This document shows positions 1,410 through 25,300 of a stretch of DNA of 64,000 nt, piece by piece; position 1 is the stretch's first letter; the number at the start of each line of letters is the position of its first letter. This DNA is from Flavobacteriales bacterium. Lineage in GTDB: Bacteria > Bacteroidota > Bacteroidia > Flavobacteriales_F > PHOS-HE28. The notes beneath the pieces are model-generated. The model saw nothing but the letters and a program-made list of their open reading frames with translations, was not told the origin of the DNA and made no database searches. Location: assembly GCA_044226515.1 (NCBI GenBank), contig JBGAGX010000011.1:31085-95084 (forward strand), written 5' to 3'. A program made the position numbers and the translations under genes.

Positions 1410-2897
1410 ATGACCGACCTGCTAAGATCACTGATCGCAACAGCCGCGTTGCTGTCGCAAGTGTCAGGAACGGCGCAACCCTGGAGCCTCGACCTGCCCA
1501 ATTCCCACGGCCCCGGTCCTTCAGCTCTGCCCTTGGCGAACGGCGACGTCCTGCTCTACAGCATTCGGGAGGAACACCTCTTGCGGGTGGATAACTCCGG
1601 TAATGTCGTGTGGGGCGCTGAACTCACAGGCCTGGGCGCTCCTGCCGCGGTGGCCGAACAACCCAATGAGGACCTGATCGCGGTGACATACCTCGATGAT
1701 CCGAACGGAAGCAACGTCGCTTTCCCGTCGATCGTGCGCCTTTCCGCGACAGGCCAGTTGCTCAGCGGCGTGCGGTACTTGGAGGATAGCACATGGATAG
1801 CCGACTGGCCCCAGGTGGTGAACGCGGACAACGGCGACTACTATGTTCTGTACACTGGACACAATACCCACCGCATCGCCTTCTTCAATGCCAACGACGC
1901 GATGGTGTGGACGTTCGACTTCCCGAATGCGGGGTTCGCCGTGCACGCCACCTGGGTCCCCGGTGATGGCCTGCATTGCTTCAACGGTTCCCTGCACTTC
2001 AGACTGAGCACCGCCGGGCAATTGGTGTGGGCCAACTTCATGCTGCCCGCCACGGGTGACTGGGGCGTTCAGAGCGCCTATTGGGACGGCACGCACTTGG
2101 TCGCAGGCATCCTCCACATCCTTTCACCGGGCAGAGCGATCCCAGGTGTCGCACACTTGGACCTGCTCGGTAACGTGCTCGATGCGATCACCTTCGGTGG
2201 ACAGGACAGCACGACACAGGAAGAGATGACCATCGCGCCCACGACCATAGGGCACATGTTGGTCACTGTAGACGCCTCAGGGCACCTCAACCTCTTCACC
2301 TGCGATGCACAATTGGGAAATGTCATGGCGTACGAAGCGCCGGTGGTGCCTTCGTGGCTGGGGGGCGCCGTCGGCACAGCGCAGCTTGGCATGGCGTGGA
2401 TGGCCACGGAAGGGAACTTCTTCAGCGGCATGCGCAGCGCCCACCACATCGGTGCGGACGGCAATCCGGGTGGTTGCATGGGCTCCATCAACATCGTTCT
2501 GGGCACCTTGCCTGTGGTAGCCCTTTTCCCCAATCCGATGCCCGTCACCATCAGCATCCCTGTGCTCAACCCTTCCGGGGTGGCGGCCACTTCGGGTCCT
2601 TATTCGCCACTGATCACACCGATCTGCTTCACCACGGACGTGAACGAACAGCAAGGGCTCATGCTGAACGTGTTCCCCAATCCGGCCCGGGACCGGATAC
2701 TGATCACACTTCCCGAAGGACCGGACGCCATGGCGATCAACCTTGTGGATGCGCGTGGCGGGATCGTGCGGCAATGGGGCCGCACACCAGCCGGTGTACG
2801 CACGCTTCAATTGGGAACCTTGGAGGCCGGCGTGTACATGCTCCGTATCACCACGGCCGATCGCGCCCCGCTGTGCACGCGCGTGGTGATCGAATAG
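1410..2897 (+). CDS. secreted hypothetical protein with T9SS type-A C-terminal sorting domain
   Basis: ATG at 1410. N-terminal signal-like 'LIATAALLSQVSGTAQP'. C-terminus 'NVFPNPARDRILITL...GVYMLRITTADRAPLCTRVVIE'. High GC3 codon bias. Confidence 0.7.
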   Translation: MTDLLRSLIATAALLSQVSGTAQPWSLDLPNSHGPGPSALPLANGDVLLYSIREEHLLRVDNSGNVVWGAELTGLGAPAAVAEQPNEDLIAVTYLDDPNGSNVAFPSIVRLSATGQLLSGVRYLEDSTWIADWPQVVNADNGDYYVLYTGHNTHRIAFFNANDAMVWTFDFPNAGFAVHATWVPGDGLHCFNGSLHFRLSTAGQLVWANFMLPATGDWGVQSAYWDGTHLVAGILHILSPGRAIPGVAHLDLLGNVLDAITFGGQDSTTQEEMTIAPTTIGHMLVTVDASGHLNLFTCDAQLGNVMAYEAPVVPSWLGGAVGTAQLGMAWMATEGNFFSGMRSAHHIGADGNPGGCMGSINIVLGTLPVVALFPNPMPVTISIPVLNPSGVAATSGPYSPLITPICFTTDVNEQQGLMLNVFPNPARDRILITLPEGPDAMAINLVDARGGIVRQWGRTPAGVRTLQLGTLEAGVYMLRITTADRAPLCTRVVIE

Positions 2898-2918
2898 GCT
2901 CCGATGCTCCGCCGCGTG

Positions 2919-2990
2919 ATCAGCTCAACCCGCTGATCACGCCGTTGGCATCCATCGCCTGTTCGGCAGCGACGATCATCATGGCAGGTC
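2919..2990 (-). pseudogene. decayed duplicate of the 3' end of fhs (relic fragment)
   Basis: A 31 bp perfect match, 'cagctcaacccgctgatcacgccgttggc', with the fhs stop region at 4751..4781. Minus-strand translation reads '...[16 protein letters not shown]' versus the true fhs end '...[17 protein letters not shown]'. Confidence 0.5.
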
Positions 2991-3021
2991 CGCCCCCGGG
3001 CGACATGGTGCGTTGAAGATC

Positions 3022-4599
3022 TCAACGCAGCACCATCAGCCGCGCCGACCGCACACCTTCACCGTTGGTGGCCCGCATGAAGTAAAGTCCGTCCGCCACG
3101 GCAGGTAGTTCCATCACCTGTGGGAAGGGGCTTGCCCAGCGTGCGACCATGGCGCCCTGTGCATCCAACAGGAGCAGCTCCTGCATACCCGCGAGGCCTT
3201 CCACCTGCACACGATCGACCGCCGGATCGGGGAACACCCGGAGCGTGCCGCCAACAGGCGGTATCGCCTGCACTCCAGTGCTGATCGCACAGGGGTCCGA
3301 CACGGACCAGGTGATGGTATCGGGCACGATCTGCGCGGTGATGTCGACCACCGTAGGACTGAGCGGGATGCGCACGAACGTGGAGTCGAGCACGGGAACG
3401 ATGCTGTCGGTGAGGACCGGCACCGTGGTGCTGCCGCAGGGAAAGGCGTTCGCGGGGTCCCAGCGGGCGATCAACGGAGCGGCACGGCCGATGGCCGGAG
3501 CGACCCGTGCACCACGCAGCAACAGGTCACCATTGGCCAAGGCCAGGGCCCTGACCCCGGTCACCAGCCCGCTGTCCGGGACCAAGCGCGCGGAAGGCTC
3601 CGGTGTGCCTGTGCTGTCCAGCGTGAACAGGACGGTCCCGTCCAATGCGCCAACAAGCGCGCACGCGACCATGGTGCCGTCCGGAAGCCGGTCCAAAGAG
3701 CTTATCCCGTACGGGCTGCTGCTCTGCTGATCGGCCCAGATGCGGCTGTTGGGCCCGAAGGTGCCGTCCGCATCCATGCGGAGCAGCACAGGCGCACCGG
3801 AGAGCACGCCTTGCTGCATCAACTGCTCAGCGAGCACGAGCCATCCGCCATCGGTCCGTTGGAGCGCCTGCACCGGCACGAGCTGGCGCGCAGCGAGGGA
3901 ACGCCCCCATTCCATGGCACCGGTGCTGTCCAGCTTCACCACCTGCATGCCCGAGGAATCCACGCCGGCGAAATGGCTGCCGAACAACAGGATCCCGCCA
4001 TCGGCGGTGGGCTTCGCGAACCGCATGGCGCCCTCCATGCCCGGGATCCGGTCGCTCCATGCATCCACAAGCACACCGTTCGCGTCCGTGCGTACGACAT
4101 AGGGCAGCTGCTCGCCGCCTGTCCTGCACCAACCGAGCACCATCAACGAGCCATCCGGCCGCACGAGCACATCCGAGAACCGCTCCCCGAAGTTCGACAC
4201 GGACATGTGCGTGACGGCCACCAGGCCGGCGTTCGCGTCCACGCGGATGAGCACACCCTGTGAATCGAAATGACCGAACAGCGCAACACCATCGTTCGGC
4301 AGCACCGTTGCACCGGACAGCTGCAACCAACCACCGGGGTTCGGGAAGCGAAGGTCATTGGCCAGGAGCAACTGCCCGGTGGCATCGAGCTTGCGGATGT
4401 GGAGGCGCGAGGTCCAGGGCGATGTGCGGATGTCCTGGCTGGTCCAGGCCGCCCACACCTCCCCGTTGGGGAGGACACCCACCACTGGCGACTCACCGGT
4501 AACGGTATCGTTGGGCACATGGTGCTGCACGAAGTCCTGCCCGTGAGCTGCGTGCAGGCTGATGAGGACAAGCGCGGTGATGAGGATCCGAAGAACCAT
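3022..4599 (-). CDS. secreted beta-propeller-like hypothetical protein with T9SS type-A C-terminal sorting domain
   Basis: ORF trimmed to ATG at 4599 ('MVLRILITALVLISLHAAHGQ' signal peptide). C-terminus 'RVFPDPAVDRVQVEG...GLYFMRATNGEGVRSARLMVLR'. Confidence 0.7.
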   Translation of the reverse strand: MVLRILITALVLISLHAAHGQDFVQHHVPNDTVTGESPVVGVLPNGEVWAAWTSQDIRTSPWTSRLHIRKLDATGQLLLANDLRFPNPGGWLQLSGATVLPNDGVALFGHFDSQGVLIRVDANAGLVAVTHMSVSNFGERFSDVLVRPDGSLMVLGWCRTGGEQLPYVVRTDANGVLVDAWSDRIPGMEGAMRFAKPTADGGILLFGSHFAGVDSSGMQVVKLDSTGAMEWGRSLAARQLVPVQALQRTDGGWLVLAEQLMQQGVLSGAPVLLRMDADGTFGPNSRIWADQQSSSPYGISSLDRLPDGTMVACALVGALDGTVLFTLDSTGTPEPSARLVPDSGLVTGVRALALANGDLLLRGARVAPAIGRAAPLIARWDPANAFPCGSTTVPVLTDSIVPVLDSTFVRIPLSPTVVDITAQIVPDTITWSVSDPCAISTGVQAIPPVGGTLRVFPDPAVDRVQVEGLAGMQELLLLDAQGAMVARWASPFPQVMELPAVADGLYFMRATNGEGVRSARLMVLR

Positions 4600-4749
4600 G
4601 ACCCAATGTATCGCTCCACTAAAGACGGCGATGCGGCATGAAGTTGCTTGGCGCAGGTGCCCGCCGTTCGCATGCCCATGGCACCGTGTGGAAGCCAGGC
4701 CCACGCGGAGGGCGATCCGCCTGCCCCGGCAGGATGTGTGCGCGACCCT

Positions 4750-6426
4750 TCAGCTCAACCCGCTGATCACGCCGTTGGCGTCGATGTCCATGTGCTCGGC
4801 GGCGGGCACTTCGGGCAGGCCGGGCATGCGCATGATCTCGCCGCAGATGGGCACCACGAATCCGGCCCCGGCGCTGATCTCGATGTCGCGCACGGTGATG
4901 CGGAAGCCGGTGGGCGCGGCCCGCAGCTCCTTGTTGTCGCTGAAGCTGTACTGCGTCTTGGCCATGCAGATGGGCACGTTGTTGAGCCCGAGCTTGTCGA
5001 TGCGGCGCAGCGCGGTCTCGGCATCGCCGCTGTAGTCCACACCGTCGGCGCGGTAGATCTCGCGGGCGATGGTCTCGATCTTCTGCTTGATGGAGAGGTT
5101 GAGGTCGTAGAGCGGCTTGAAGTCGCTCTTCCCTTCCTCGATCACGCGGAGCACGGCGCTGGCCAGATCGGTCATGCCGTCGCCACCCTTGGCGAAGCCC
5201 TGCGCAAGCACCGCTTCGGCCCCGCGTTCCTTGCAGTACGCCTTGATCATGTCGATCTCCTCGGGCGTGTCCGTGGGGAAGTGGTTGATGGCCACCACGG
5301 CCTTCACGCCGAACTTGGACACGTTCTCGATGTGGCGGCCCAGGTTGGCGAGACCGGCCTTGAGCTTCTCGGGTGCGGCGGTGTTCACCTCCTTCACGTC
5401 CACGCCGCCGTGGTAGCGCAGCGCGCGCACCGTGGCCACGATCACGGCAGCGCTGGGCTTCAGGCCCGCCGCGCGGCACTTGATGTCGAAGAACTTCTCG
5501 GCGCCCAGGTCGGCACCGAAGCCCGCCTCGGTCACCACGTAGTCGCCGAGGCTGAGGCCCATCTTGGTGGCGAGCACGCTGTTCACGCCCTGTGCGATGT
5601 TGGCGAAGGGACCACCGTGCAGGATGGCAGGATTGCCTTCCAGCGTCTGCACCAGGTTCGGCTTGATGGCGTCCTTCAGCAGGATGGCCATGGCGGCCTC
5701 GGCCTTCAGGTCGCGGGCATACACGGGCGTGCGGTCCCAGCGCTGGCCCACGTAGATGTCGCCGAGGCGCTTCTTCAGGTCCTCGAAGCTGGTGGCGAGG
5801 CACAGGATGGCCATCACTTCGCTGGCGGGGGTGATGTTGAAACCGTCCTGCCGGGGCACGCCGTTGCCGGTGCCGCCCAGGCCGATGGTGATGTCGCGCA
5901 GCGCGCGGTCGTTCATGTCCATCACGCGCTTCCAGGCGATGGTGCGCGGATCGATGTTGAGCGAGCGCTTGCGGTTCTGCAGGTTGTTGTCGATGAGCGC
6001 GGCGAGCAGGTTGTTGGCCTTCTCGATGGCCGCGAAATCCCCGGTGAAGTGCAGGTTGATGTCCTCCATGGGCACCACCTGCGCGTAGCCGCCGCCGGCC
6101 GCACCGCCCTTCATGCCGAACACCGGACCCAGGCTCGGTTCACGCAGCACCACGATGCTCTTCTTGCCGAGCTTGTTCAAGCCTTCGTTCAGCCCGATGC
6201 TGGTGGTGGTCTTGCCTTCACCGGCGGGCGTGGGCGAGAGCGCGGTCACCAGGATCAGCTTGCTCTGGACGAGCTTCTTCTCGTCGATGAGCGAGAGCGG
6301 CAGCTTGGCCTTGGTGCGGCCGTAGGGTTCGATCACCTCCGGATCGATGCCCAGCTTCTGGGCGATGGCGGCGATGGGCTTCAGCTGCGCTTTCTGCGCG
6401 ATCTCGAGGTCGGAGGGGAATGCCAT
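4750..6426 (-). CDS. fhs: formate--tetrahydrofolate ligase
   Basis: Diagnostic FTHFS sequence: '[21 protein letters not shown]', '...[20 protein letters not shown]...'. Start taken at the internal ATG at 6426 ('[11 protein letters not shown]'); an upstream ATG at 6450 is also possible. Confidence 0.9.
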
Positions 6427-6518
6427 GGGCGATGCAGGATGTTGTGGCACGCGTTCGCACGGTCGATCGGCCGTGCCCGTAAGCGGGCCGCCGCAATGTA
6501 ATCGGCCTCATTGAACCG

Positions 6519-9290
6519 TTAGCGCACCACCACGCGCTGGGCCTTGGTCGCCCCGGAGCCGGTCCGGAATCGCACGAGGTAGGTCCCGGCGGCGACACGT
6601 CCCCCGCCGTTCCCCCGCAGGTCCCAGGTCCAGCGCTGGTTGCCGGCCGTGCGACCACCAAGGTCACGCGCCAGCACCTGCCGACCGTTGATGTCGCACA
6701 CGGCCACCTCCAGCCGCTCCGCCTGCTGCAGGTAGACGAGCAGGTCCACCTGGTCGGTGGCGGGGTTGGGCCAGGGATGCGCGAGCGCGAGCGGTCCTGC
6801 AGGTTCGGCGATGCCCACCGGTGCCGCGGGCAGGCTGGCGCTGTACACCCCGTTGCCGTGCGTGCCCACCACGATGGTGCCGTCACTGCCACGGGCGGCC
6901 ATCATGTCCACCGGGATGTTGCCGATGCTGTTCGCCCCCTCCTGCTCCCACACGGTGGCCACGCTGTCCATCACGCTGGTGCTGTACAGGCCGGTGCTGG
7001 TGCCCACGAAGTAGCGGTTGCTCTGCCCGCCCCAGGTGGGGTAGATGAGGGCCCAGAACACCGCGGGGCCGCTGCCCGAACCATCGATGTTCTCCTCGAG
7101 GTTGGCGCTCACATCGGTCCAGGTGTCGCCGCGGTCGGTGGTGTGGAACACGCTGCGCACGCCGTAGTTGCTCACCGTGATGAGCCACTCGTTGGGGTCG
7201 TAGTCGTTGGCGGCCACGGAGCTCACGTAGCCCGCGCCCAGCACGGCGCTGCCCAGGAGCTGCACCTTCTGCGGGTTGGTGTCCAGGCTGTCGCAGCGGT
7301 ACAGCCTGCCGTTGATGGTGCCGTACAGCATGAACGAGGGGTCGGCCGCACTGATGTCGAGGGCGCTGATGCGGCTCGCGCTGGGCAGGGTGGCACCATC
7401 GATGAGCTCCCAGTTCGTATCGATCTTGTTGTAGAAGTTGTTGGTGATGGGGATGCCGGCGAGGTCGTTGTTCCGCCAGATCTTGGCCGCGCTCACCCAG
7501 TACAGCCGGTTGTTGTTGCCCGGGTCGAGGATGAAAGGATTGATGAAGAGGTAGCTGTTCGTGCCCAGCGTGGGATCGATGCGCTCATAGCCCGTGACGT
7601 TCCCGCCCGCGTCGATCGTCTTCTTGTACAGGCGCCCGCTCTGGCTGCAGCTGAGCTGGAAGGGCTGGCCCTGCGGCAGCGCCACATAGGCCCCGTCATC
7701 CTGGTGCACGTACTTCCAATCGCTCAGGGGCTGGTCGTTCATGGCGTACCAGCAGCCGTTGTCCTGGCAGCCGCCGATGATGTTGGGACTGGTGGTGTTG
7801 CCCTCCTCGATGGCGATGGTGTAGAACTGCGTGGTGACGTACCCGTGGTTGAGGTCCTCCCACTGCACGCTGTCGGCGAGGGCGTCCACGGTGCGTTGCA
7901 CGCCCCCGTCGTTGGTGCTGAAGAGGATGTTGGGGTCGCTCGGATGGAACTGCACCCAATGCTGGTCGGGGTGGTGTTGCGGATACACGTAGCTCTTGGG
8001 GTCGGCGGTGTTGCAGCGGTAGCCGCCGATCCAGGTGGTGCTGTCGCTGGTGGTGAAGCCGGTGGTGCTGCGGTAGAGCGAGGTGCCGCCCACGTACACC
8101 ACGTTCGGCTGCGTGGGATGCACGGCCAGGCACATGTCGTATCCGTCCTGCGAGTTGATGTAACCGAAGTTGAAGGTGAAGTAACCGGTGCAGGAGCCGT
8201 TCGGCAGGTTGCCGCTCAGGTTGGTCCATTGCCCGCCGGCGCCCGTGCCATCGCCACTGAGGTAGGTGTAGCGCCACAGGCTGTGGCCCTGCGTGCCCTG
8301 GCCGGGGGTGACGCCGAAGAAGTAGACGACGTTCTCGTTGCTCGGATCAATGGCGGGCACGATGCGTGTGGCACCCGAGGGGAAGAAGCCGATGCCGATG
8401 TTCGTCCAGGCGAGCCCGTCGGTGCTGCGCCAGATGCCTTTCTGCGGACCGGGACTGCTGCCGGCCGCGTACCACACGCCCGTGGTGGTGACACGCAGGT
8501 CGGTGTACTCCTGCACGTTGCTCAGCGTGGTGTCGAGGCCGAGCACGGGCTTCCACGTGGCCCCGCCATCGTTGCTGCGGAAGATGCCGTTGTACACGGC
8601 CGCGAGCACGATGTCGCTGTCGTTGCGGGTGGGGTCCACGTCGATGTGGTTCACCTGCTTGAAGCTGAAGTTGCGGTTGAACACCTGCGGATCGAAGGCC
8701 TCGGTGCTGGGCAGCAGCGTCCAGCTCTGGCCGTTGTCGGTGCTGGTGTAGATGCCGCTTCCGCTGAGCAGGGCGCTGAAGCTGGCGCCGCTCATGATGC
8801 CGTAGTTCTCACCGGTGCCGGCGTACCACGTGTCCTCGTGCCCGGAGCGCGGGTCCTGCGCGATGCAGCTGATGGCCTGCAGCACGGGGGGCGCAAGGGT
8901 CTTGGTCCAGCTCTGCCCGCCGTTGGTGCTGCGCCAGATGCCGCCGCTCACGCTGCCGGCGAGCAGGATGTCGCCGTTGCGCCGGTCGACGCCGAAGCCG
9001 CGGGTGCGGCCACCGCGGTTGTTCGGACCGCGATGCGTCCAGGTGAGGCTCTTCACCGGGTCGCGCTTCGGAAGGGTCTTCGCGAACCGCAGCTCCAGCG
9101 CGCGGATGTCCTCGGGGATGGTGCCGGTGGCCGGATCGCGCATGCGCTCGAAGCGCCACTGCAGGGCCTCGCCCGCCTCCTCCGCGACCTCGGTATCGGG
9201 CTCCACGGCGTCGGCCGGTGCATCGGGACGTGCACAAGCGAGGAGCAGGAGCGGAAGCGTGGCGAGGGAAAGGGCGTGGTGCGTGCGCAT
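6519..9290 (-). CDS. BNR/Asp-box repeat (sortilin/VPS10- or GH74-like) secreted protein with T9SS type-A CTD
   Basis: Signal 'MRTHHALSLATLPLLLLACA'. Multiple S-x-D/N-G-G-x-(S/T)-W Asp-box motifs ('STNGGQSW', 'STDNGQSW', 'SNDGGATW', 'TTDRGDTW'). C-terminus 'WPNPATDQVDLL...GTYLVRFRTGSGATKAQRVVVR'. Confidence 0.65.
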   Translation of the reverse strand: MRTHHALSLATLPLLLLACARPDAPADAVEPDTEVAEEAGEALQWRFERMRDPATGTIPEDIRALELRFAKTLPKRDPVKSLTWTHRGPNNRGGRTRGFGVDRRNGDILLAGSVSGGIWRSTNGGQSWTKTLAPPVLQAISCIAQDPRSGHEDTWYAGTGENYGIMSGASFSALLSGSGIYTSTDNGQSWTLLPSTEAFDPQVFNRNFSFKQVNHIDVDPTRNDSDIVLAAVYNGIFRSNDGGATWKPVLGLDTTLSNVQEYTDLRVTTTGVWYAAGSSPGPQKGIWRSTDGLAWTNIGIGFFPSGATRIVPAIDPSNENVVYFFGVTPGQGTQGHSLWRYTYLSGDGTGAGGQWTNLSGNLPNGSCTGYFTFNFGYINSQDGYDMCLAVHPTQPNVVYVGGTSLYRSTTGFTTSDSTTWIGGYRCNTADPKSYVYPQHHPDQHWVQFHPSDPNILFSTNDGGVQRTVDALADSVQWEDLNHGYVTTQFYTIAIEEGNTTSPNIIGGCQDNGCWYAMNDQPLSDWKYVHQDDGAYVALPQGQPFQLSCSQSGRLYKKTIDAGGNVTGYERIDPTLGTNSYLFINPFILDPGNNNRLYWVSAAKIWRNNDLAGIPITNNFYNKIDTNWELIDGATLPSASRISALDISAADPSFMLYGTINGRLYRCDSLDTNPQKVQLLGSAVLGAGYVSSVAANDYDPNEWLITVSNYGVRSVFHTTDRGDTWTDVSANLEENIDGSGSGPAVFWALIYPTWGGQSNRYFVGTSTGLYSTSVMDSVATVWEQEGANSIGNIPVDMMAARGSDGTIVVGTHGNGVYSASLPAAPVGIAEPAGPLALAHPWPNPATDQVDLLVYLQQAERLEVAVCDINGRQVLARDLGGRTAGNQRWTWDLRGNGGGRVAAGTYLVRFRTGSGATKAQRVVVR

Positions 9291-9327
9291 GGGAGGGTGT
9301 TCACGCCGAAGGTAACAGCGGCGCCGC

Positions 9328-10563
9328 TCACGCGCGCTCCACGCCGAAGCCCGCCGCCCGCAGGTCGTCCCAGTACCTCGGATAGCTCTTGGTCACCACG
9401 TCGGGATCAAGGATGGTGATGCTGCCGGTGATGAGGGCCAGGGGGGCGAGGGCCATGGCCATGCGGTGGTCGCCATGAACACTGAAGTCCCCATTGATGA
9501 GCAACCGACCCCGCGCAGGAGGCTCGATCATCAACCAGGGTCCGTTCCGACCGATCCCGCATCCCATGCGCTCGAGGGCATCCTGGACAGCGGTCAGGCG
9601 ATCGGTCTCCTTGTGTCGAAGGGTCCCCAAGCCCTTGAATGATGCGCGCACCCCCAGCCCGGCGCGTGCAAAGGCGAGAGGTTGGAACAGGTCCGGCGTG
9701 GCCGTGACATCCGCAGAGGCGGACAAGATGGGATCCTCCGCGCGTTGGGAAGGTGACACGGACGTGATCCATATGCCAGCATGTGCGTCACGGGTCCGCA
9801 CCCATTCCTCCATGTGGATCCAGACGCGCTCATCTCCTTGGAAGCCATCGCCCCGCAGCCCCACCAGCTCCACCTCCGCATCCTCCGCCAGCGCCACGAT
9901 CTCGTACCAAAAGGCCGCCGCGCTCCAATCGCAGGGCACATCGAAGGGCCGCGCGGTATAACGTCCGGGCTTCACCGCGATCAGCGTCTCCCCCACCTCC
10001 ACTTCCGCCCCGAAGTGCCGCATCACCTGCGCGGTCATCTCCACGTACGGCCGTGAGAGCTGCGTGCCGCGCCATTCGATCCGCAGGCCCTCCTCCATCC
10101 GCGGCGCTACGAGCATGAGCGCGCTGAGGTACTGGCTGCTGATGGGCGAATCGAAGGTGATCGTCCCTCCTTGAAGACGAGCGCCCTTCACACGGTAGCC
10201 TTCATCCGCACGTTCGACCGAGGCGCCGAGCTTCCGCAAGGCTTCGATGAGGTCATCGTGCGGGCGCTCCAGCAGCTTCGCATCGCCGGCGACCACGTGG
10301 GTGCTCCCTTCCTGCACCGCGGCCCAGGCCAGCAAGAACCGGAAGGTGGTGCCGCCGAGGCCGCAGTGCATCACGCGGGGCCGATCGCGCAGCAGCTGGT
10401 GAAGGATCCGCGTGTCGTCCGCCTCGGACAGGTGGTCGATGCCGGAGAGGTCGCCGGCCAGGGCCGCCGCGACCAGCGCGCGGTTGCTCACGCTCTTGCT
10501 GCGCGGCAGCTCGATGCGGGCGCGGATGGGCGCCGAAGGTCTACGGATGGTGACGCTGGGCAT
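9328..10563 (-). CDS. aroA: 3-phosphoshikimate 1-carboxyvinyltransferase (EPSP synthase)
   Basis: 'IELPRSKSVSNRALVAAALAG...' and overall EPSP synthase pattern. Start trimmed to ATG at 10563 ('MPSVTIRRP'). Overlaps the aroB stop. Confidence 0.85.
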   Translation of the reverse strand: MPSVTIRRPSAPIRARIELPRSKSVSNRALVAAALAGDLSGIDHLSEADDTRILHQLLRDRPRVMHCGLGGTTFRFLLAWAAVQEGSTHVVAGDAKLLERPHDDLIEALRKLGASVERADEGYRVKGARLQGGTITFDSPISSQYLSALMLVAPRMEEGLRIEWRGTQLSRPYVEMTAQVMRHFGAEVEVGETLIAVKPGRYTARPFDVPCDWSAAAFWYEIVALAEDAEVELVGLRGDGFQGDERVWIHMEEWVRTRDAHAGIWITSVSPSQRAEDPILSASADVTATPDLFQPLAFARAGLGVRASFKGLGTLRHKETDRLTAVQDALERMGCGIGRNGPWLMIEPPARGRLLINGDFSVHGDHRMAMALAPLALITGSITILDPDVVTKSYPRYWDDLRAAGFGVERA

Positions 10564-12945: not shown

Positions 12946-15105
12946 TCAGCGCTTCACGAAGCGCGATACCTGCCCGTTCACGCGCAAGGCATATGCACCG
13001 GCCGGCAGTGCGCCCACATCCACCTGTGCGAGGTTCGTTCGCAACCGTTCCCACAGCCGACCATCCGCGCCGATCACGTCAATGGCGTACGGACCGGTGG
13101 TGTCGGACAAGCTGAACGAAAGGACCTGATCCGCCGGGTTCGGCCACACCCGCAGCTGCCCCTCTGAGCCGGTCGATGAGTGCTCCTGGACCAGCGTGCT
13201 CACACCCGCCACCACCACTGCATCGTTCGTGTGGATGGGGGCGTTGAGGTCGAAGAAGATATCGGCCGCGTTGGTGAGGACGGTGCCCGGAAGCACCGGT
13301 TGTACAGGCCTGATGCGGAAGCTGAGCGCCCCGTGGCTTGCGGCCTCGTTGGTGTTGCTGTCGGGCAGCAGGATGTTCGCGAAGCGCCACTCCACCATGC
13401 GACCGGGCTTGAAGCTCACGTTGAAGGGGTGCGACGCGGTGCCCTGTTCGAAGGTGCCCATGTCGAGGTCCGCATCGATCACATCCGTCACCACCACCGT
13501 GAATGCCGTGTCGGTGCCGGTGTTCTGGAAGCGGATGGTGTACTCCAGCCAGTCGTCAGTGCCGATGATGTAGGTATCCTCGCTCCAGGCGGTGCTCGTG
13601 CGCACACGCTTGTCATTGGGATCGAAGCTGCCCACCACGGTAGTGATCGCCTGCACCTGGTCGTTCATCGGGTCCGCATCGGGCAGCGAGTTGGATACCG
13701 ACACGATCTCGGTCAGCAACGTCCCGAGCGCCATGCCGGCGGGTACCTGCAGCGCGATGGAGAAGTCCTCGTCCTGGAAGCTCACGAACTGCGGAAAGGT
13801 CCAGGTGACCAGGTTCCCGGCCACGTTCGATGGAGCAGGTGATGCGTTGACGAAGGAGAGCCCCGGATCGAAGGTCACGGACAAGGTGACCGGCCCGCTG
13901 GCCTGCGGAGAGAGGTTCCGTACCGTCCCCCACACCGAGGTGATGAAGCCCGGTCTGGCCACTTCGTGCGACGCGTACACCGCCAGGTCCAGTGGTTCCG
14001 TGCTCACGTTCGCGAGCGGGATCACCTGCGCGTTCGTGTTCATGGTGAACGGCGTGGGGATGGTGCCGGGGCAGATGCTCACCAGGGTGGGGTCGGCCTG
14101 GTCGAGCGTATAGCTGCCGTTCACTATGGGGAAACCGTAATGACCGCTGGAGTCCGTGAGCACGTTCAAGTTGCCTGGCTGGATCACCAAGGGACTGAAC
14201 GGAATGGGCACCTCCGCAGCATCCTGCACACAATCCGCATCGAGGTCGTACCAACTGGTGCCGCTCACAGTGCCGCAGTTGGGACCGAGGTCACCGATGG
14301 TGAATGCCGTGGAGATGCCCATGCATTGGTTCACCATGGACCACGTGTAGTTCTGCACGACCGCGTAGTAGCCGGCGGCCAATCCGGTCAAGGTCAGCGG
14401 GTCGATCGACTGGTAGCTCTGGCCCACCACCTGGTTGTTCCAGTCGTACACGGTGATGTCCATGGGCCAGTCGGCGCTGTTCGGCTCGATCACGATCGAA
14501 CCGAGGGACGACCCGCAAACAGGGGTGTTGCCCAAATGGTTGACCGCTATGCCCAAGGGTCCATCGACAGTGAAGAGATCCGACCCCACGCACCCCGACG
14601 CATCCGTCACCGTGTAGTACACCTGGTCGCCCTGGGCCACGCCCACGTAAAGGGGATCGCCGTTGAACGTTCCGGTCTGACCCATCGGCGTGCCGTTCAC
14701 CTCGAGGCTCACGGTGTATGGCGGCGTGCCCGGCGTCAGGCTGTTCAACACCGCGAACGCACCATCGGACTGCATGGGACAGGGGAACATGCCCGCATAC
14801 GTCACGCCGGGCAATGGCATCGTGCCGGCCACGAGGGTGACGCCGTAGTTGTCCGTATCACCACCGCTGTCGGTCACCGTAAGGGAATAGAAACCTGCTG
14901 ACAGACCCGTGCGCGAAGCAGTGGTGGCCCCATCGGACCATTGATAGGTGTACGGCGGCGCCCCTCCCGTCACCCATACAGTGATGCTCCCGTCGCTGTT
15001 GAAGCAGGTCGGGTCGTGGGCGTAAGCACCGATCTGCACGGCGAACACAACATCCGGCATTGCACCCAGGAACGCTAAGAGGAGAATTGAACGCATGATG
15101 ATCAC
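12946..15105 (-). CDS. T9SS cargo protein (SprB-like N-terminal repeats, DPNDK/FQNTGTDTAF module, type-A CTD)
   Basis: Signal 'MRSILLLAFLGAMPDVVFA'. 'GGAPPYTYQWSDG' SprB-type repeat. 'SFDPNDKRVRTS...RFQNTGTDTAFTVVVTDVIDADLDMGTFEQG'. C-terminus 'LRVWPNPADQVLSFSL...GAYALRVNGQVSRFVKR'. GTG start overlaps the stop of the upstream paralog (ATGA-type coupling). Confidence 0.7.
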   Translation of the reverse strand: MIIMRSILLLAFLGAMPDVVFAVQIGAYAHDPTCFNSDGSITVWVTGGAPPYTYQWSDGATTASRTGLSAGFYSLTVTDSGGDTDNYGVTLVAGTMPLPGVTYAGMFPCPMQSDGAFAVLNSLTPGTPPYTVSLEVNGTPMGQTGTFNGDPLYVGVAQGDQVYYTVTDASGCVGSDLFTVDGPLGIAVNHLGNTPVCGSSLGSIVIEPNSADWPMDITVYDWNNQVVGQSYQSIDPLTLTGLAAGYYAVVQNYTWSMVNQCMGISTAFTIGDLGPNCGTVSGTSWYDLDADCVQDAAEVPIPFSPLVIQPGNLNVLTDSSGHYGFPIVNGSYTLDQADPTLVSICPGTIPTPFTMNTNAQVIPLANVSTEPLDLAVYASHEVARPGFITSVWGTVRNLSPQASGPVTLSVTFDPGLSFVNASPAPSNVAGNLVTWTFPQFVSFQDEDFSIALQVPAGMALGTLLTEIVSVSNSLPDADPMNDQVQAITTVVGSFDPNDKRVRTSTAWSEDTYIIGTDDWLEYTIRFQNTGTDTAFTVVVTDVIDADLDMGTFEQGTASHPFNVSFKPGRMVEWRFANILLPDSNTNEAASHGALSFRIRPVQPVLPGTVLTNAADIFFDLNAPIHTNDAVVVAGVSTLVQEHSSTGSEGQLRVWPNPADQVLSFSLSDTTGPYAIDVIGADGRLWERLRTNLAQVDVGALPAGAYALRVNGQVSRFVKR

Positions 15106-17288
15106 AGGTTGATCAGCCGGACGAAGTGGATGGTTCCATCGCTGATCCTGGCCTTCACCACGTAGCCACCCGAGGCAAGACCGTTCAGGTCCATGTGGAC
15201 CGACCGCCCCGATGCGACCACGCGCCGGGCGACCCGACCGTCCATCGAAAGCAGTTCCACGCTCTGAAGTTCGGCATCACCAACGGATACATTGATCGCG
15301 TCCTGCGCAGGGTTCGGCCACACGCGCAAACGCTCCTGCCCGTGCTCCTGCACCGCGGTGCTCACCTCGGCCGTCACCACCGCATCGTTCGTGCGCACCG
15401 GTGCATTGAAGTCGAAGAAGATGTCCGCGTTGTTGCGGTACTCGGTCCCGGGCAGCACAGGCTGCATGGGGCGGATGCGGAAGCTCACCGCACCATGGCT
15501 TGCCACTTCGTTCGTGCCGCTGTCGGGCAACAGGATGTTGGCGAAGGTCCACCGCACCACGCGCTCCGGCAGGAACTGCACGGTGAACGCATGGCTGGCC
15601 ACGCCCTGCTCGAAGAAGGCCATATCGAGGTCGGCATCGAGGGTATCGGTCACCACCACCGTGAAGGCCGTGTCGGTACCGGTGTTCTGGAACCGGATCG
15701 TGTAGTCCAGCCATTCATCCGTGCCGATGATGTAGGTGTCGTCGCTCCAGCCCGAGCTGGTGCGGACGTTCTTGTCGTTGGGGTCGTAGCTGCCCTGCAC
15801 GGCCGTTGCGTGGGTGCTGGTGTTGTTGGCGGGCACCCCGTCAGGCAGCGTGTTGTCCACGGCGGCGATGTTCACCACGGGCGCTCCGAGCGGAGCGGTC
15901 ACCGGAACGTTCACCACCACGTGGATGTTGTTGGACTGGTAGGGCGCGAAGGCCGGGAAGTTCCACGTGAGCACGTTGCCGGCGATGGTGTTCGGCGGAG
16001 GAACCGCGCCGACGTAGACGAGCAGCAGGTCCAGGGTGCACGTCACCGTGACCGGACCGCTGAGCTGGGGCGAGGCGTTGCGGGCGTTGAGCCACACGTT
16101 GGCATCGAAACCCGGGCGGAAGGGTCCGCCGGTGAGCGACACCCGCATGTCCAACGGCGCCGTGCTGCTGTCGGCGAGGCTCAGGCTCACGGTGTTGTTG
16201 TTCACGGTGAACGGCGTGGGCACCTGGGCCGGGCAATGCTGGATGAGCGCGGGATCGGTCTGCGCCAGGGTGTAGCTGCCGTTGGCAACGTTGGTGGTGA
16301 AGGAGCCGCCCGCATCGGTGATGGCGTACACGGCACCGGGCTGGATCAGCAGCACCTCGTACGGCACGCCCGCTTCGAAGCCATCGTGCACGCAGTCCTG
16401 GTCGGCATCGATGTACACCTCGCCGCTCACCGTGCCGCACGTGGGGCCCAGGTCGGGCACGTCGAAGCCCACGGTATCGAGGTAGTTGCAGGGGTAGGCG
16501 GTATACTGGTACCCGTTGTTCCAATCGCGGCCCACCGCGTAATGGCCGGGCAGCAGACCGGTGAAGCCGCCGTTGCCGTAGCTGTTGATGATGTTGCCCT
16601 GCGCATCGAAGAGAAGCAGCACGGGCGGCTGGAACCAGCTGTAGCCATTGTAGATGTTGCCCACCGTGACCGCGCCGTTCGCGCCGCCGTTGCAGCTGGG
16701 CACCACGCTCTGGATCACCATGGGACCGGCGCCCACCTGCGGCTCCATCACGGTCTCCACCGCGGTGCCGGTGCAGCCGTTCGCATCGGTCACCTGAATG
16801 AACACATCCGTGCCGCCGCACGTGCCGGGGAAGATGAAGTACGGGTCGCTCTGCGCATCGTACCCCGCAGGAGCCGGGTAGTACTGGAAGGGCGGCGTAC
16901 CGCCGATGTAGGGTTCAATGAGCTGCACCTCCCCCCAGCATTGGCCGGGGCAGTTGGCGTGTCCATCCTGCGCGAAATAGGGGATCACCAGCGCATTGTT
17001 GTTGTTGATCGTCACCGTCACCTGGTCCTGCGCGCTCATGGCGTCGGTCACCACCAGGGTGTAGGTGCCGGCCGGAATGTTGTAGAGGTCCTCGGTGATG
17101 GCGCCGTTCGACCAGGAATAGCTGTACGGCGGCGACCCACCTGACACACCCGCATCGATGTACCCGTTGGACGTACCGCACGTCTCGTCCATGGATTGGA
17201 CGATGTACGCGTCCAGCGTGACCGGCGCGGCAACAAGGCGCTGGAGCATCAGCGTCGTGGCGAAAAGCAGGCGGAAGCGGATGGGCAT
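15102..17288 (-). CDS. SprB-repeat T9SS cargo protein (paralog of 12946..15105)
   Basis: Trimmed to ATG at 17288 ('MPIRFRLLFATTLMLQRLVAAP'). 'GYIDAGVSGGSPPYSYSWSNG' SprB repeat. 'GSYDPNDKNVRTSSGWSDDTYIIGTDEWLDYTIRFQNTGTDTAF'. C-terminus 'LRVWPNPAQDAINVSV...GGYVVKARISDGTIHFVRLINL'. The upstream part of track ORF 15102..18770 is antisense to the CoA-transferase gene. Confidence 0.7.
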   Translation of the reverse strand: MPIRFRLLFATTLMLQRLVAAPVTLDAYIVQSMDETCGTSNGYIDAGVSGGSPPYSYSWSNGAITEDLYNIPAGTYTLVVTDAMSAQDQVTVTINNNNALVIPYFAQDGHANCPGQCWGEVQLIEPYIGGTPPFQYYPAPAGYDAQSDPYFIFPGTCGGTDVFIQVTDANGCTGTAVETVMEPQVGAGPMVIQSVVPSCNGGANGAVTVGNIYNGYSWFQPPVLLLFDAQGNIINSYGNGGFTGLLPGHYAVGRDWNNGYQYTAYPCNYLDTVGFDVPDLGPTCGTVSGEVYIDADQDCVHDGFEAGVPYEVLLIQPGAVYAITDAGGSFTTNVANGSYTLAQTDPALIQHCPAQVPTPFTVNNNTVSLSLADSSTAPLDMRVSLTGGPFRPGFDANVWLNARNASPQLSGPVTVTCTLDLLLVYVGAVPPPNTIAGNVLTWNFPAFAPYQSNNIHVVVNVPVTAPLGAPVVNIAAVDNTLPDGVPANNTSTHATAVQGSYDPNDKNVRTSSGWSDDTYIIGTDEWLDYTIRFQNTGTDTAFTVVVTDTLDADLDMAFFEQGVASHAFTVQFLPERVVRWTFANILLPDSGTNEVASHGAVSFRIRPMQPVLPGTEYRNNADIFFDFNAPVRTNDAVVTAEVSTAVQEHGQERLRVWPNPAQDAINVSVGDAELQSVELLSMDGRVARRVVASGRSVHMDLNGLASGGYVVKARISDGTIHFVRLINL

Positions 17289-17402
17289 GCGGGGGTGGCT
17301 TGGTGCGAAGACGCGGATGCGGGAGGAAGGATGCCACCCTGAAGGTCGGTACTTCTGACGAACAACAGGTGGACGCACCGTCCCTCCCCCGACCTTCGCC
17401 CC

Positions 17403-18686
17403 ATGGAACGCTGGATGACCGCGGCCGAGGCCGCACGCCTGGTGAAGAGCGGCGACCGTGTGTTCGTGCACGGCAGCGCCGCCACGCCGCACACCCTGCT
17501 GAACGCCCTGCTGGCCCGCGCGCCGGAGCTGGAAAAGGTGGAGCTGGTGAGCATCAGCACGCTCGGGCACATCGACTTCGACCGCCCGGCCGTGCAACGC
17601 AGCTTCTTCGTGAACAGCCTCTTCGTGAGCGAGAACGTGCGCGCCGTGGTGAACGGGCCTTACGGTGAATACGTGCCCGTGTTCCTGAGCGAGATCCCCC
17701 TGCTGTTCGAACGTGGGATCCTGCCGCTCGATGTGGCGCTGGTGCACGTGAGCCCGCCCGACCGCCACGGCTTCTGCACCCTGGGCGTGAGCGTGGACGT
17801 GGCCCGCAGCGCCGTGCGCAACGCCAAGCTGGTGATCGCGCAGGTGAACCCCCGCATGCCGCGCACCCACGGCGAAGGCCAGGTGCACGTGAGCAGCTTC
17901 GCCGCGTTGGTGCAGGTGGATGACGCCCTGCCCGAGGTGGACTACGGCAGCCGCATCGGCCCCAAGGAGGAGCACATCGGTCGCCTGTGCGCCGAGCTTG
18001 TGGAGGACCGCAGCACCCTGCAGATGGGCATCGGTGCCATCCCCGACGCCATCCTGCGCTGCCTGGGCGGGCACAAGGACCTGGGCGTGCACACCGAGAT
18101 GTGCAGCAACGGCATCATCGACCTGCTGGAGCGCGGAGCGATCACCAACCGCTACAAGAAGAAGTACAAGGACCGGGTGGTCACCACCTTCGCCATCGGC
18201 ACGCGGGCGCTGTACGACCGCATCGACGACAACCCCGCCTTCGCCTTCCTCGACGCGCAGTACGTGAACGCGGGCCACGTGATCCGGCAGAACCCGCGGG
18301 TGGTGGCCGTGAACAGCGCCATCGAGGTGGACCTCACCGGGCAGGTGTGCAGCGACAGCATCGGCACCTACCACTACAGCGGGGTGGGCGGGCAGATGGA
18401 CTTCATGCGCGGGGCGGCGCTGAGCGAGGGCGGCAAGCCCATCATCGCGCTGTGCAGCACCACGGGCAAGGGGGAAAGCAAGATCGTGCCCTTCCTGCGG
18501 CAGGGCGCCGGCGTGGTCACCACCCGGGCCCATGTGCACTACGCGGTCACCGAGCACGGCGTGGCCAACCTCTTCGGCCGCAACATGCGGCAGCGCGCAG
18601 AAGCCCTGCGCGACATCGCCCACCCCGACCACCGGGAGGCGCTGGACCGTGCCATCGTGGAGCGCTTCGGGCCGAAGGTGATCTGA
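17403..18686 (+). CDS. acetyl-CoA hydrolase/transferase family protein (4-hydroxybutyrate/succinyl-CoA:acetate CoA-transferase-like)
   Basis: '...MGIGAIPDAILRCLGGHKDLGVHTEMCSNGIIDLLERGAITN...AIEVDLTGQVCSDSIGTYHYSGVGGQMDFMRGAALSEGGKPIIAL' matches the AcetylCoA_hydro/CoA-transferase C-terminal region. Confidence 0.8.
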   Translation: MERWMTAAEAARLVKSGDRVFVHGSAATPHTLLNALLARAPELEKVELVSISTLGHIDFDRPAVQRSFFVNSLFVSENVRAVVNGPYGEYVPVFLSEIPLLFERGILPLDVALVHVSPPDRHGFCTLGVSVDVARSAVRNAKLVIAQVNPRMPRTHGEGQVHVSSFAALVQVDDALPEVDYGSRIGPKEEHIGRLCAELVEDRSTLQMGIGAIPDAILRCLGGHKDLGVHTEMCSNGIIDLLERGAITNRYKKKYKDRVVTTFAIGTRALYDRIDDNPAFAFLDAQYVNAGHVIRQNPRVVAVNSAIEVDLTGQVCSDSIGTYHYSGVGGQMDFMRGAALSEGGKPIIALCSTTGKGESKIVPFLRQGAGVVTTRAHVHYAVTEHGVANLFGRNMRQRAEALRDIAHPDHREALDRAIVERFGPKVI

Positions 18687-18793
18687 GCGCATCGGCCCAG
18701 CGGCAGCGTTCGCACCGCCGCGGAGGCGATCCGCACAACGCACCCGGCGGTGGGGACAGGCGCGCGGCATCTTCGGGGTACACCGATCACATC

Positions 18794-22169: not shown

Positions 22170-22320
22170 CGGTCGGGTATTGGACCAAAGATGGTGCGGT
22201 CGCCGATACCGGACAGGACGAATGTCATGCGGACCGGCCGTGGTTATCCACATCGAACGTTGCAGATCACGGTGATCAACGGATACCCATGGGACGGGCG
22301 CGGGGGGACCTTTGTTGGTG

Positions 22321-25300
22321 ATGAGAAGTGTCCTTTCGCTTGGGGGGTGGGGGTTGTTGTGCGCCTTGTTAAGCCCGGCATCGGCGTGGGCGCAGCCGCC
22401 CTTGACCGCCAATGCAGGTCCAATGCAGGTGAGCCTTTGCAGCAACGGGCAGGTCACACTTGGTGGCAACCCCACGGCGAACGGTGGACAGGGACCGTAC
22501 ACGTATCAATGGACACCTGCTGCCGGATTGAACGACCCCACCGTGGCCAATCCGATCTGCACGGTGAACACCACAACGCCGTACACCGTCACGGTAACGG
22601 ACGCGAACAACAACACAGCAACGGATCTCATCACCGTGAACGTGAGCGCCGCAGCCACGGCCGACCTCATCATCCAGGCACCGGCGGTGCAGAGCCAGTT
22701 CGGCGGCTACACCACCTACAGCCTGTGCGACCCCAGCCTCAGTTGGAACTTCCTGATCGACGACGCCAGCAGCGGCGTGGCCAGTGGCAGCACCCTCACG
22801 GTGAACTGGGGGGATGGAAGTCCGGTGTATTCGCCCGGTGCCGCGGGATGGAGCACCAACCACACGTACGCGCAGGGGCTGCATGTGCTCACCTACACCA
22901 TCACCCAGAACGGATGCACGGACACCCAGCAGGTGCAGGTGTTCCTGGGCACGAACCCCGGCGGGGGCATCAGCACGAACCCGAACACCAACATCTGCAC
23001 CGGCGGCTCGCTCCCCTTCTTCCTGAACAACGTGCTCACCAACACCCCGGGCACCACCTACCTGATCGACTTCGGTGATGGCACGGACACCCTGCTGCAG
23101 CAGCCGCCGCCAGCGGTGATCAACCACACCTACAACGTGAGCAGCTGTCCGGGCGGGAGCTTCACGGTCACCTTCGTGGCGCAGAACCCCTGCGACCAGA
23201 CGAACGGGCAGATCAGCCCGATCCGCGTGAGCCAGACGCCGCAGGCCAGCTTCACCCTGAGCACCGACACCGTCTGCGTGAACAGCACGGTGACCGCGAC
23301 GGACGCCAGCCTGGGCCTGCAGGCACCGCAATGCACGCAGCCCAAGCACCTGTGGAGCGTGAGCCCCGCCACGGGCTGGACCCTCTCGAGCGGCAGCTTG
23401 GGCAACGCCAACGGGCAGCCCGGCAACCCCGGCTTGTGGACCGGCGGCAGCGCCAGCCTCGGCGTGCAGTTCACCACGCCAGGCACCTACACCATCACCG
23501 ATGTGGTGGGCAACGTGTGCGGCTTCGACACGCTGCAGCGCTCGGTGTGCGTGGAAGCCCCGCCCACCGCCGCCTTCACGCTCAACCCCAACCCCATCTG
23601 CCAGGGCCAGCAGGTGAACACCGACAACACCAGCACCGCGCCCAACAGCTGCAGCATCCGTTACCAGTGGCAGCTGAACCAGACGGCGAGCTATTGCAAC
23701 AGCGGCAACAGCACGGCCTTCGTGAGCGGCACCAGCGCCACCAGCTTCGAGCCGGTGATCCAGTTCAACAGCGCGGGCACCTACAACGTGGTGCTGCAGG
23801 CGATCAACTCGTGCCCCGTGGTCACCGCCACACAGCCCGTCACCGTAGTGGGACCGCCGCAGGTGAGCCTCTTCACGGTAGGCCCGATCTGCGCGGGACA
23901 GAGCATCTTCCCATCGGCGACCTTCCAGCAATGCGGCGGCACGCTCACCACGCCGCAATGGACGCTCACCGGCGGCAGTCCGGCCACCGCCACGGGCAAC
24001 AGTCCGGGCGGCGTGAGCTATGCGAACCCGGGCAACTTCACCGTGACCGCGAGCGTGACCAACCAATGCGGTCCGGCGCAGGCCAGCACGCCGCTGGTGG
24101 TGAACCCCACCCCGCCGAGCGCCAACGCCACCGCCACCACCACCACGCTCTGCGCAGGGCAGACCATCCAGCTGCAGGCCACGACGATCGCCAACGCCAC
24201 CTACAGCTGGACCGGACCGAACGGCTGGAGCAGCACGCAGCAGAACCCGAGCATCCCCAACGCCACGGTGGCGATGAGCGGCACCTACACGGTCACCGCC
24301 TTCCTCGGTGTGGTGTGCGCCGGTCCGCCCAGCAGCGTCATCATCACGGTGAACCCCGCCCCGCTGCTCACGATCACCCCGGGCAGTGCGAACCTGTGCG
24401 CCGGCGCGAGCACCACGCTCACGGCCAACGGCGGCAGCGGGTACACCTGGACCGCCAACGGACAGCCCGCGGGCAACGGCAACAGCATCACCGTGAGCCC
24501 GGTGGTGACCACCACCTACACGGTGACAGGCAACGGCCTCGGTTGCCCGGGCACGGCCAGCGCCACCGTCACCGTGACCACACCACCGGTGGTGAGCGCG
24601 GGACCGGACCAGACCTTCTGCAACCAGCCGATCCCGGTGCAGTTGAACGGTGCGCCCGCTGGCGGCACCTGGAGCGGCAGCCCGAACGTGACGGCCGCCG
24701 GCGTGTACACCCCGCCCCTCGCCACCGGCACCACCACGCTCACCTACAGCTACACCGATGCCAACGGCTGCACCGGAAGCGACCAGGCGCAGGTGACGGT
24801 GATCACGGTGCAGAACCCTGCGACCACCGGACCGAACGTCACGGTGTGCGCGGGCACGCCACAGCTCAATCTCTTCGCCACGCCGGCGGGGGGCACGTGG
24901 AGCGGTCCGGGCGTCACACCCGGAGGGCAGTTCAATCCCGTCACCGCGGGCGTGTTCGTGTTCACCTACACCGCGGGCACCGGCACCTGCCAGACGAGCG
25001 ACCCGCTCACGGTGACGGTGGTGGCCAACCCCGTGGTGCAGGCACCGCCCGACCAGAGCCTCTGCGTGAACACGTCCCCACTGCAGCTCAACGGCACGCC
25101 GGCGGGCGGCACGTGGAGCGGACCCGTGGTGACGCCCGGTGGCAGCTTCGACCCCGCGGCGGCGGGTCCGGGTGCGTACACCCTCACCTACACCTACGCC
25201 AACGCGAACGGCTGCACCAGCAGCGACGCGGTCACGCTCACGGTGAACGCACTGCCCGTGGTGGGCGCGGGCCCCGACCAGACCCTGTGCGACCAACCGA

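Follow-up and report, generated by a model that had tools for sequence, protein, structure and literature searches.

An orphaned fhs 3′ fragment behind a putative secreted-protein gene: a candidate recombination scar in a Flavobacteriales contig

RESULTS

The locus downstream of fhs

The window analysed here is a 64-kb stretch (64,000 nt) of a Flavobacteriales contig, and the subject is the region directly behind its fhs gene, which encodes formate-tetrahydrofolate ligase. The features are itemized in Table 1. Following the minus strand, the intact fhs is succeeded by a spacer, then by a single gene (hereafter the cargo gene) and then by a short, start-less fragment of the fhs 3′ end, referred to as the orphan. 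The spacer, cargo gene and orphan together form a module of ~1.8 kb lying directly behind fhs. Beyond the orphan there is a convergent gene for a protein of the type IX secretion system (T9SS) class. The locus was compared with those of relatives. A scan for fhs relatives with one genome per species gave two useful loci, L001, a Flavobacteriales metagenome-assembled genome (MAG) with an fhs product 97% identical in amino acid sequence, and L002, where the identity is 78%. The contigs of cargo homologues, together with a metagenome scan, provided 21 further loci (L081-L101).

Table 1. Features of the fhs locus in the window, and the corresponding orphans in relatives
Feature	Position	Strand	Basis or remark
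fhs (formate-tetrahydrofolate ligase), intact, 558 aa, conserved anchor	4750..6426	-	Pfam FTHFS E = 1.7e-261, full length
Repeat copy B, last nine fhs codons and stop	4750..4779	-	exact 30-mer
Spacer from fhs stop to cargo start, 150 nt, belonging to the shared module	4600..4749	-	comparison with relatives
Cargo gene, 525 aa, signal-peptide-like N-terminus	3022..4599	-	weak delta-60/DUF5122 repeat match
Stretch from cargo stop to orphan, 50 nt	2972..3021	-	not demonstrably fhs-derived; orthologous in L081/L082
Orphaned fhs 3′ fragment, ~17 codons, no start codon, one codon deleted	2920..2971	-	translation and blastn
Repeat copy A, distal 30 nt of the orphan, identical to the live fhs end	2920..2949	-	
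Perfect 11-bp palindrome, GCGTGATCAGC, 7-nt loop, GCTGATCACGC	2914..2942	.	last bases of the orphan and 6 nt of flank
Convergent T9SS gene, 495 aa, just past the orphan	1410..2897	+	Pfam Por_Secre_tail E = 1.9e-7
Orthologous orphan, L081	L081 9629-9680		
Orthologous orphan, L082	L082 2848-2899		
Array of orphan tails, L087	L087 3784-4228		
Array of orphan tails, L092	L092 71-226		

The direct repeat TCAGCTCAACCCGCTGATCACGCCGTTGGC occurs in two copies only within the window, at the end of the live fhs and within the orphan, and in 100 shuffles no such repeat was found. It is 30 nt long, bounded by the mismatching bases 2919 and 4749, and comprises the final nine codons of fhs with the stop codon; if two mismatches are allowed the match grows to 34 of 36 positions. 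The same 30-mer, or a variant of it differing in one base, ends the fhs genes of L001, L081, L083 and L087. The minus-strand translation of 2920-3021 ends like the C-terminus of the fhs product. The homology of the orphan to fhs is solid over ~52 nt (2920-2971), and in a blastn comparison the second copy matched the fhs end of L001 at 86% over 58 columns. Upstream of this core the resemblance to fhs is no better than that of shuffled sequence. The whole of 2920-3021 aligns to L081 and L082 at 87% identity.

The cargo gene is the sole gene between the two copies of the repeat. A protein search with its product returned ten homologues (P0001-P0010) of 514-525 aa. Against the T9SS sorting-domain model TIGR04183 the protein scores 17.1 bits with a cut-off of 23, yet the alignment runs from end to end of the model (residues 455-523); no match was found to Pfam Por_Secre_tail (PF18962). 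For one homologue, P0007, the source gives the name T9SS type A sorting domain protein. Judged from sequence, the cargo product is probably a T9SS secreted protein.

The original prediction, made from the letters of the window, thus needs little change as a description of the locus. Its perfect repeat exists in two copies, at a length of 30 rather than 31 nt and with coordinates displaced by 1-2 nt. Exactly one gene is bracketed, as it had said, and this is a real gene with homologues of closely similar length. What it described as a decayed relic of fhs is a genuine orphaned 3′ fragment, by its translation, by blastn and by its orthologues in other lineages. Its T9SS label for the cargo gene is carried by a C-terminal domain that scores below threshold (TIGR04183) or gives no hit (Pfam), and by the name that the source gives to P0007.

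Gene order behind fhs in relatives

A cargo homologue lies after fhs in every case for which upstream sequence is available. The distance between the two genes is ~150 nt in the window, in L081/L082 and in L083-L086/L089, ~1 kb in L091, L095 and L096, and 1.5-4 kb in L088 and L087. Because even the most distant homologue (42% amino acid identity, L097) is found 92 nt after the fhs stop codon, the linkage of fhs and cargo is old in this group, and the cargo gene no newcomer to this type of locus. Its arrival as a new gene, which the original prediction had put forward, is at odds with such an old association.

The same order of spacer, cargo gene and orphan is present behind fhs in independent assemblies, namely L081/L082 (two separate assemblies) and L083-L086/L089. 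The orphan that follows the cargo gene in L083/L089 is shorter and more decayed, GGGGTGATCGGTGCTTAACGGA. The spacer of the window is 87% identical to that of L081/L082 and 78% identical to that of L083/L084; it is absent after fhs in L001, L087 and L002. No orphan was detected by a sensitive short-word search of the spacers of L091, L095, L096 and L097. Among 90 fhs loci tested, a second copy of the genome's own fhs end was found only in L081, L082 and L087, all three being members of the small group of relatives that includes the window.

The window and L081 remain homologous from the upstream neighbour of fhs across fhs, the spacer and the cargo gene into the orphan, and the homology ends exactly at the orphan stop codon (window 2920, corresponding to L081 9680). 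Beyond the module the neighbours are mutually unrelated, comprising the 495-aa T9SS protein in the window, a 480-aa DUF5122 protein in L081, a 622-aa CHU_C protein in L083 and a 430-aa membrane protein in L087. No homologue of the 1410-2897 gene was present at that position in L081, L083 or L087.

The flanks of L001 and L081 are 90-97% identical at the nucleotide level, yet the slot behind fhs is differently filled, with a flavin-reductase-like gene in L001 and with spacer, cargo gene and orphan in L081. On one side the swap begins with the final base of the fhs stop codon, and its other edge falls within the C-terminal domain of a convergent gene of 480 or 515 aa. The interval corresponds to L001 11678-13071 and L081 7851-9934, bordered by flanks of 94-97% identity, with its right breakpoint in the T9SS C-terminal domain of the convergent gene. 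The position of this breakpoint suggests that T9SS C-terminal domains also serve as anchors for recombination.

An empty site carrying a single copy of the repeat had been proposed as a check on the insertion. In L002 there is one fhs end, followed after 85 nt by a convergent T9SS gene, with neither orphan nor cargo gene. L001 likewise has a single copy of the fhs end, with its slot otherwise filled.

In L087 fhs is directly followed by three or more partial fhs tails, which differ in length and have no gene between them, and one of these fragments runs ~25 nt past the stop codon. Corresponding fragments with the same junctions are present at the contig edge of L092, where no intact fhs is visible. 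The partial copies in L087 3716-4260 (GCA_016720105.1, JADJXU010000004.1) and L092 1-230 all hold an 18-nt insert, GCTGTCGCGGGACAGGTC, that is lacking in the live gene, and one of the L087 copies has been called as an 88-aa open reading frame (ORF) with an FTHFS domain.

Further irregularities were noted at other loci. In L088 (GCA_016712025.1; 4820-5215 and 6379-7686) the normal last six codons of fhs are lost at a run of GGGGG, beyond which the frame stays open to 676 aa, and a copy of the window type of cargo gene (86% nucleotide identity) is split into three ORFs, with a paralogue of 50% identity following in tandem at 8001-9575. The broken fhs and cargo genes of L088 are either pseudogenes or the result of indel errors in assembly. 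In L095 the ~1-kb spacer is occupied by an ORF of 261 aa (2061-2846) that is convergent with fhs and overlaps the fhs stop by 17 nt; the L091 spacer is 69% similar to that of L095.

Exchange of the module between lineages

The relative age of the module was assessed as identity at four-fold synonymous sites, comparing the window with L081 and with L083 (Table 2). In addition, the cargo gene is 93-94% identical between lineages over all nucleotides, and for the non-coding spacer and orphan the identity to L081 is 87%. Since the cargo gene retains 88-89% identity at four-fold sites when neighbouring genes have fallen to ~46-65%, the module has been exchanged recently between lineages. By this measure it is far younger than the genomes that carry it, and it is always located behind fhs.

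Table 2. Identity at four-fold synonymous sites between the window and two relatives
Gene	Window vs L081	Window vs L083
Cargo	88%	89%
fhs	76%	67%
ProDH	65%	
aroB	63%	
T9SS923	56%	46%
aroA	52%	
DUF7619	49%	47%

The anchor gene itself is strongly conserved. The fhs products of L001, L081, L083, L087 and L088 are 89-97% identical in amino acid sequence, and fhs is 86-93% identical in nucleotide sequence across lineages. This unusual conservation is shared by all the relatives, including those without the module. At four-fold sites the window fhs is 66-79% identical to those of L001, L081 and L087, with 47-65% for neighbouring genes, and the unusual codons GGG-TTG near the end of the gene are kept even in L002 (78% amino acid identity). 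The excess may reflect codon bias, constraint at the nucleotide level or recombination, which are not separable here. Transfer of fhs itself was considered, given the 97% amino acid and 92% nucleotide identity in L087, and was set aside as unproven; its conservation is as high in every relative, and the effects of codon bias and of recombination are not distinguishable. Look-ups of exact products for the fhs and cargo proteins of the window returned no record.

The perfect 30-mer within an old orphan

The window orphan does not match its own fhs evenly. The terminal 30 positions are all identical, falling to 15 of 30 in the adjacent 30 nt (Fisher p = 6e-6). In L081 and L082 the orphan differs from the fhs end of its own genome at 6 of 30 positions, and in L083 and L089 it is more decayed. 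When the orphans of the window and L081 are compared with each other, they agree at 28 of 30 positions upstream and at 25 of 30 in the terminal block, and at all five of the terminal differences the base in the window is that of the live fhs. The tree of the cargo genes is ((window, L081), L083) with L088 as outgroup (informative sites 28/13/6), and two bases are common to the L081 and L083 orphans at sites where that of the window has the base of fhs.

Because of the abrupt step in identity, the comparison with the L081 orphan and the cargo tree, the window orphan is a chimera, in which the left part is old and the right 30 nt were recently copied from, or crossed with, a live fhs end. These comparisons indicate that the orphan duplication is old, and that the 30-mer in the window is a secondary reset from a live fhs end rather than a fresh attL/attR pair. 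The perfection of the repeat, which had been taken as a sign of attL and attR, thus loses that meaning; the duplication goes back to the state seen in L081/L082 and, worse preserved, in L083/L089, and the stretch was reset later. The sequence following the orphan stop, GAGCATCGGAGCC, loosely resembles the flank that follows fhs in L001 and L087, GAGCATCGCAGAGGC. It was not used as evidence because the flank of the live fhs in the window resembles that sequence too.

Surroundings of the locus

The window is dense in genes for T9SS cargo proteins at 1-1398, 12946-15105, 15102-18770 and 22312-29073. Three DUF7619/DUF11/SprB paralogues, of which two are in tandem, are among them, as is a PKD/CHU_C protein of 2253 aa. 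On the other side of fhs, L087 has a gene of the PDDEXK_3 family (1580-1978) between a 920-aa T9SS gene and fhs, which is absent at the counterpart position in the window (6451-6518). An isolated fragment resembling the first 36 residues of the fhs product (56% identity) lies at L006 8068-8175 (Capnocytophaga gingivalis ATCC 33624), ~1.8 kb upstream of an intact fhs.

DISCUSSION

A probable displaced 3′ end behind a conserved anchor

We consider, with somewhat better than even confidence, that recombination left the segment 2920-2971 as a scar, a displaced and no longer living copy of the end of fhs. With the same modest confidence the locus as a whole is interpreted as a small hypervariable islet of secreted-protein genes behind a conserved fhs, the scar resulting from homologous or illegitimate recombination that is anchored in fhs and displaces its old 3′ end. 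Several observations are consistent with such displacement. There is a conserved anchor, fhs, and the content downstream of it differs in every lineage. Start-less orphans are found downstream of the insert in the window and L081, and as arrays in L087 and L092. The inserted DNA is of horizontal origin, on the basis of the four-fold identity of the cargo gene set against that of its neighbours, and it is bounded by the fhs stop codon on one side and by the orphan stop codon on the other.

A sequence of events can be proposed. DNA with the order fhs, spacer and cargo, coming from a lineage that has the cargo gene after fhs, would pair with the resident fhs of a lineage in which fhs faces another, convergent T9SS gene, as in L002. 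The far end of the incoming fragment would join within the last ~50 nt of the resident fhs, so that the resident tail is pushed downstream of the cargo gene. Such a join would be a case of 3′-end displacement through homology-facilitated illegitimate recombination; a single crossover of the Campbell type, with a circular fragment, would be equivalent. The displaced tail would then decay. While it remained fhs-like, the module would be bracketed by two patches of fhs homology, and could be moved or have its neighbours swapped by ordinary homologous recombination. Finally a crossover, or an intragenomic gene conversion, within the window orphan would have reset the last 30 nt to live fhs sequence. 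In this scheme we infer the illegitimate nature of the join, the direction of transfer, and the participation of RecA-type recombination rather than a recombinase acting in trans.

A number of points weigh against this interpretation. No microhomology, nor any counterpart on the donor or the recipient side, is recognisable at the join of cargo gene and orphan (2972-3021). There is no window-like tract to be seen near the fhs 3′ end of L081 relative to L001, and a left crossover inside fhs is not visible. Edges coinciding exactly with a direct repeat are also expected from site-specific recombination. That the ancestral orphan had already decayed is suggested by two positions, which lie in the badly decayed L083 sequence. 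An empty site was found in no genome close to the window itself, and the direction and number of transfer events are consequently deduced. Most of the comparison loci are metagenome contigs or MAGs and, if L087 and L088 are long-read assemblies, they may hold indel errors.

Alternative explanations

Site-specific integration is rather unlikely. Here the 30-mer would be the attL/attR core used by a tyrosine or serine recombinase, and the module either the remnant of an island that has lost its integrase or a cassette mobilised in trans. It would readily explain why a horizontally exchanged segment is bracketed by direct repeats of the target gene 3′ end with fhs left intact, why the module edges fall exactly at the repeat ends, and why the module is always at one site, behind fhs. 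However, no integrase, recombinase or transposase family was found in the module or in the main window ORFs checked, from 49 to 29073, nor among the genes called within ~8 kb of the cargo gene in L081, L083, L087 and L088. The original prediction had already remarked on the missing integrase in the window, and the relatives extend that observation. The repeat is not maintained in other carriers, given the mismatches in L081/L082 and the worse state of L083. The fhs fragments in L087 and L092 vary in length and extend ~25 nt past the stop, which argues against a fixed core; their pattern fits repeated illegitimate or homologous events better. Viral contigs contained no relative of the 30-mer or of the cargo protein, and the region 2898-4800 had no match in plasmid and phage records. 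In the tested loci outside the small group of relatives there was no second copy of the genome's own fhs end. No integrase is needed to explain the scar. A circle or tandem junction of the module would read GCTGCCGAACAGGCGATGGAT + 30-mer + AGGGTCGCGCACACATCC, and an empty site GAGCACATGGACATCGAC + 30-mer + TCACGCGGCGGAGCATCGG.

A purely local event with vertical inheritance, in which the end of fhs underwent tandem duplication or slippage followed by deletions, the cargo gene having always been present, is unlikely. The cargo family is indeed an old neighbour of fhs, with homologues down to 42% identity located from 92 nt to ~4 kb after it, and the 18-nt insert shared by the L087 fragments points to local duplication in that genome. 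Vertical descent is nevertheless hard to reconcile with the identity of the cargo gene, 93-94% over nucleotides and 88-89% over four-fold sites, against 52-65% for the housekeeping genes. It is also contradicted by the occurrence of the module beside three unrelated right-hand neighbours, and by L001 and L081, where near-identical flanks enclose a different slot.

Quite improbable is a more ambitious version of these ideas, in which the 30-nt fhs end would be a dedicated attachment site for integron-like, single-gene cassettes of T9SS cargo, exchanged between genera by a recombinase encoded elsewhere. In a variant requiring no recombinase, orphan-flanked 'homology cassettes' would be a general device by which secreted-protein genes move between divergent Bacteroidota.

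It is very doubtful that the second copy is a functional element, kept as a hairpin terminating two convergent genes, with selection on a shared terminator responsible for its identity to the fhs end. The palindrome at 2914-2942 lies between the convergent stop codons at 2897 and 3022, and its RNA has a strong predicted fold (-42.1 kcal/mol, z = -4.2). Moreover, it includes six extra complementary bases in the flank, which would arise by chance about once in 4096. Against this, the palindrome has no U-tract, and a scan for promoters and terminators over 2700-4900 called nothing. The live fhs end has a stem of only 5 bp in place of the 11-bp palindrome, and its fold is no better than that of shuffled sequence. 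Neither the palindrome nor the 30-mer is kept in the L081 and L083 orphans, and selection for a hairpin could not account for the identity of seven loop bases and seven bases outside the stem. A conserved terminator containing both copies, which had been named in advance as the case that would undo the insertion, is thus contradicted by the missing U-tract and by the loss of the hairpin in L081 and L083. The hairpin may represent a secondary use of the scar as a bidirectional terminator, or the product of template switching at the junction.

On the reading of fhs-anchored displacement, the original prediction was right to see an insertion scar and a mobile cargo module. It was mistaken in regarding the perfect repeat as a recent att pair, as the orphan is old and its 30-mer was reset. 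Arrival or exchange of the cargo gene by recombination, as it proposed, is consistent with the movement of the module between lineages. The best fit is given by its alternative suggestion of a recombination hotspot for cargo genes at the fhs 3′ end.

Relation to known systems

The locus provides a clean and datable case of a conserved housekeeping gene acting as a landing pad for the exchange of a secreted-protein gene, between lineages that are saturated in synonymous divergence. Exchange at fhs needs no mobile-element machinery. For annotation, the segment 2920-2971 should be labelled as an fhs pseudogene fragment. There is also a more general caution, that a perfect direct repeat at the 3′ end of a gene is not necessarily an att site of recent date; at fhs it belongs to an old scar, the end of which has been reset by recombination.

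Displacement of 3′ ends (and hence C-termini) at Rhs, CdiA and type VI secretion system (T6SS) effector loci has been proposed to proceed by homology-facilitated illegitimate recombination (Jackson et al. 2009; Kirchberger et al. 2017, PMC5361080), and the orphaned 3′ regions that it leaves are described for T6SS effector and Rhs loci (PMC5361080). The fhs locus resembles these in that a conserved upstream gene provides the homology anchor, the sequence downstream is replaced or extended by incoming DNA, and the resident 3′ end survives as a start-less orphan. Repeated events give strings of orphans, as in L087 and L092. The fhs locus differs in having as its anchor the gene of a housekeeping enzyme rather than of a polymorphic toxin, and an orphan of ~17 codons that encodes nothing useful. 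Moreover, it is a separate downstream gene, probably of the T9SS class, that is exchanged and not the C-terminal domain of the anchor, and an immunity gene is lacking.

Genomic islands, prophages and integrative elements that insert at the 3′ ends of tRNA or protein genes likewise leave a repeat of the target end that brackets the acquired DNA, with the target intact. By contrast, no integrase was found here, the insert is a single-gene segment of 1.8 kb, the repeat is not conserved among carriers and the fragment lengths are variable; viral, phage and plasmid collections held no mobile-element relative. The order of intact gene, insert and 5′-truncated second gene end is that produced by Campbell-type integration, through a single crossover, of circular DNA that carries an internal 3′ piece of the gene. 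Such integration is known mainly from laboratory suicide vectors, and here no circular form was observed.

A parallel to the 30-mer itself is gene conversion between short dispersed repeats. The abrupt block of 30 identical positions beside a decayed one, in copies 1.8 kb apart, has that character. The tract is very short, near the minimum at which RecA-type pairing is known, and a crossover between genomes would account for the block just as well. The scar is real and of a known, fairly ordinary kind, and it reveals no new system.

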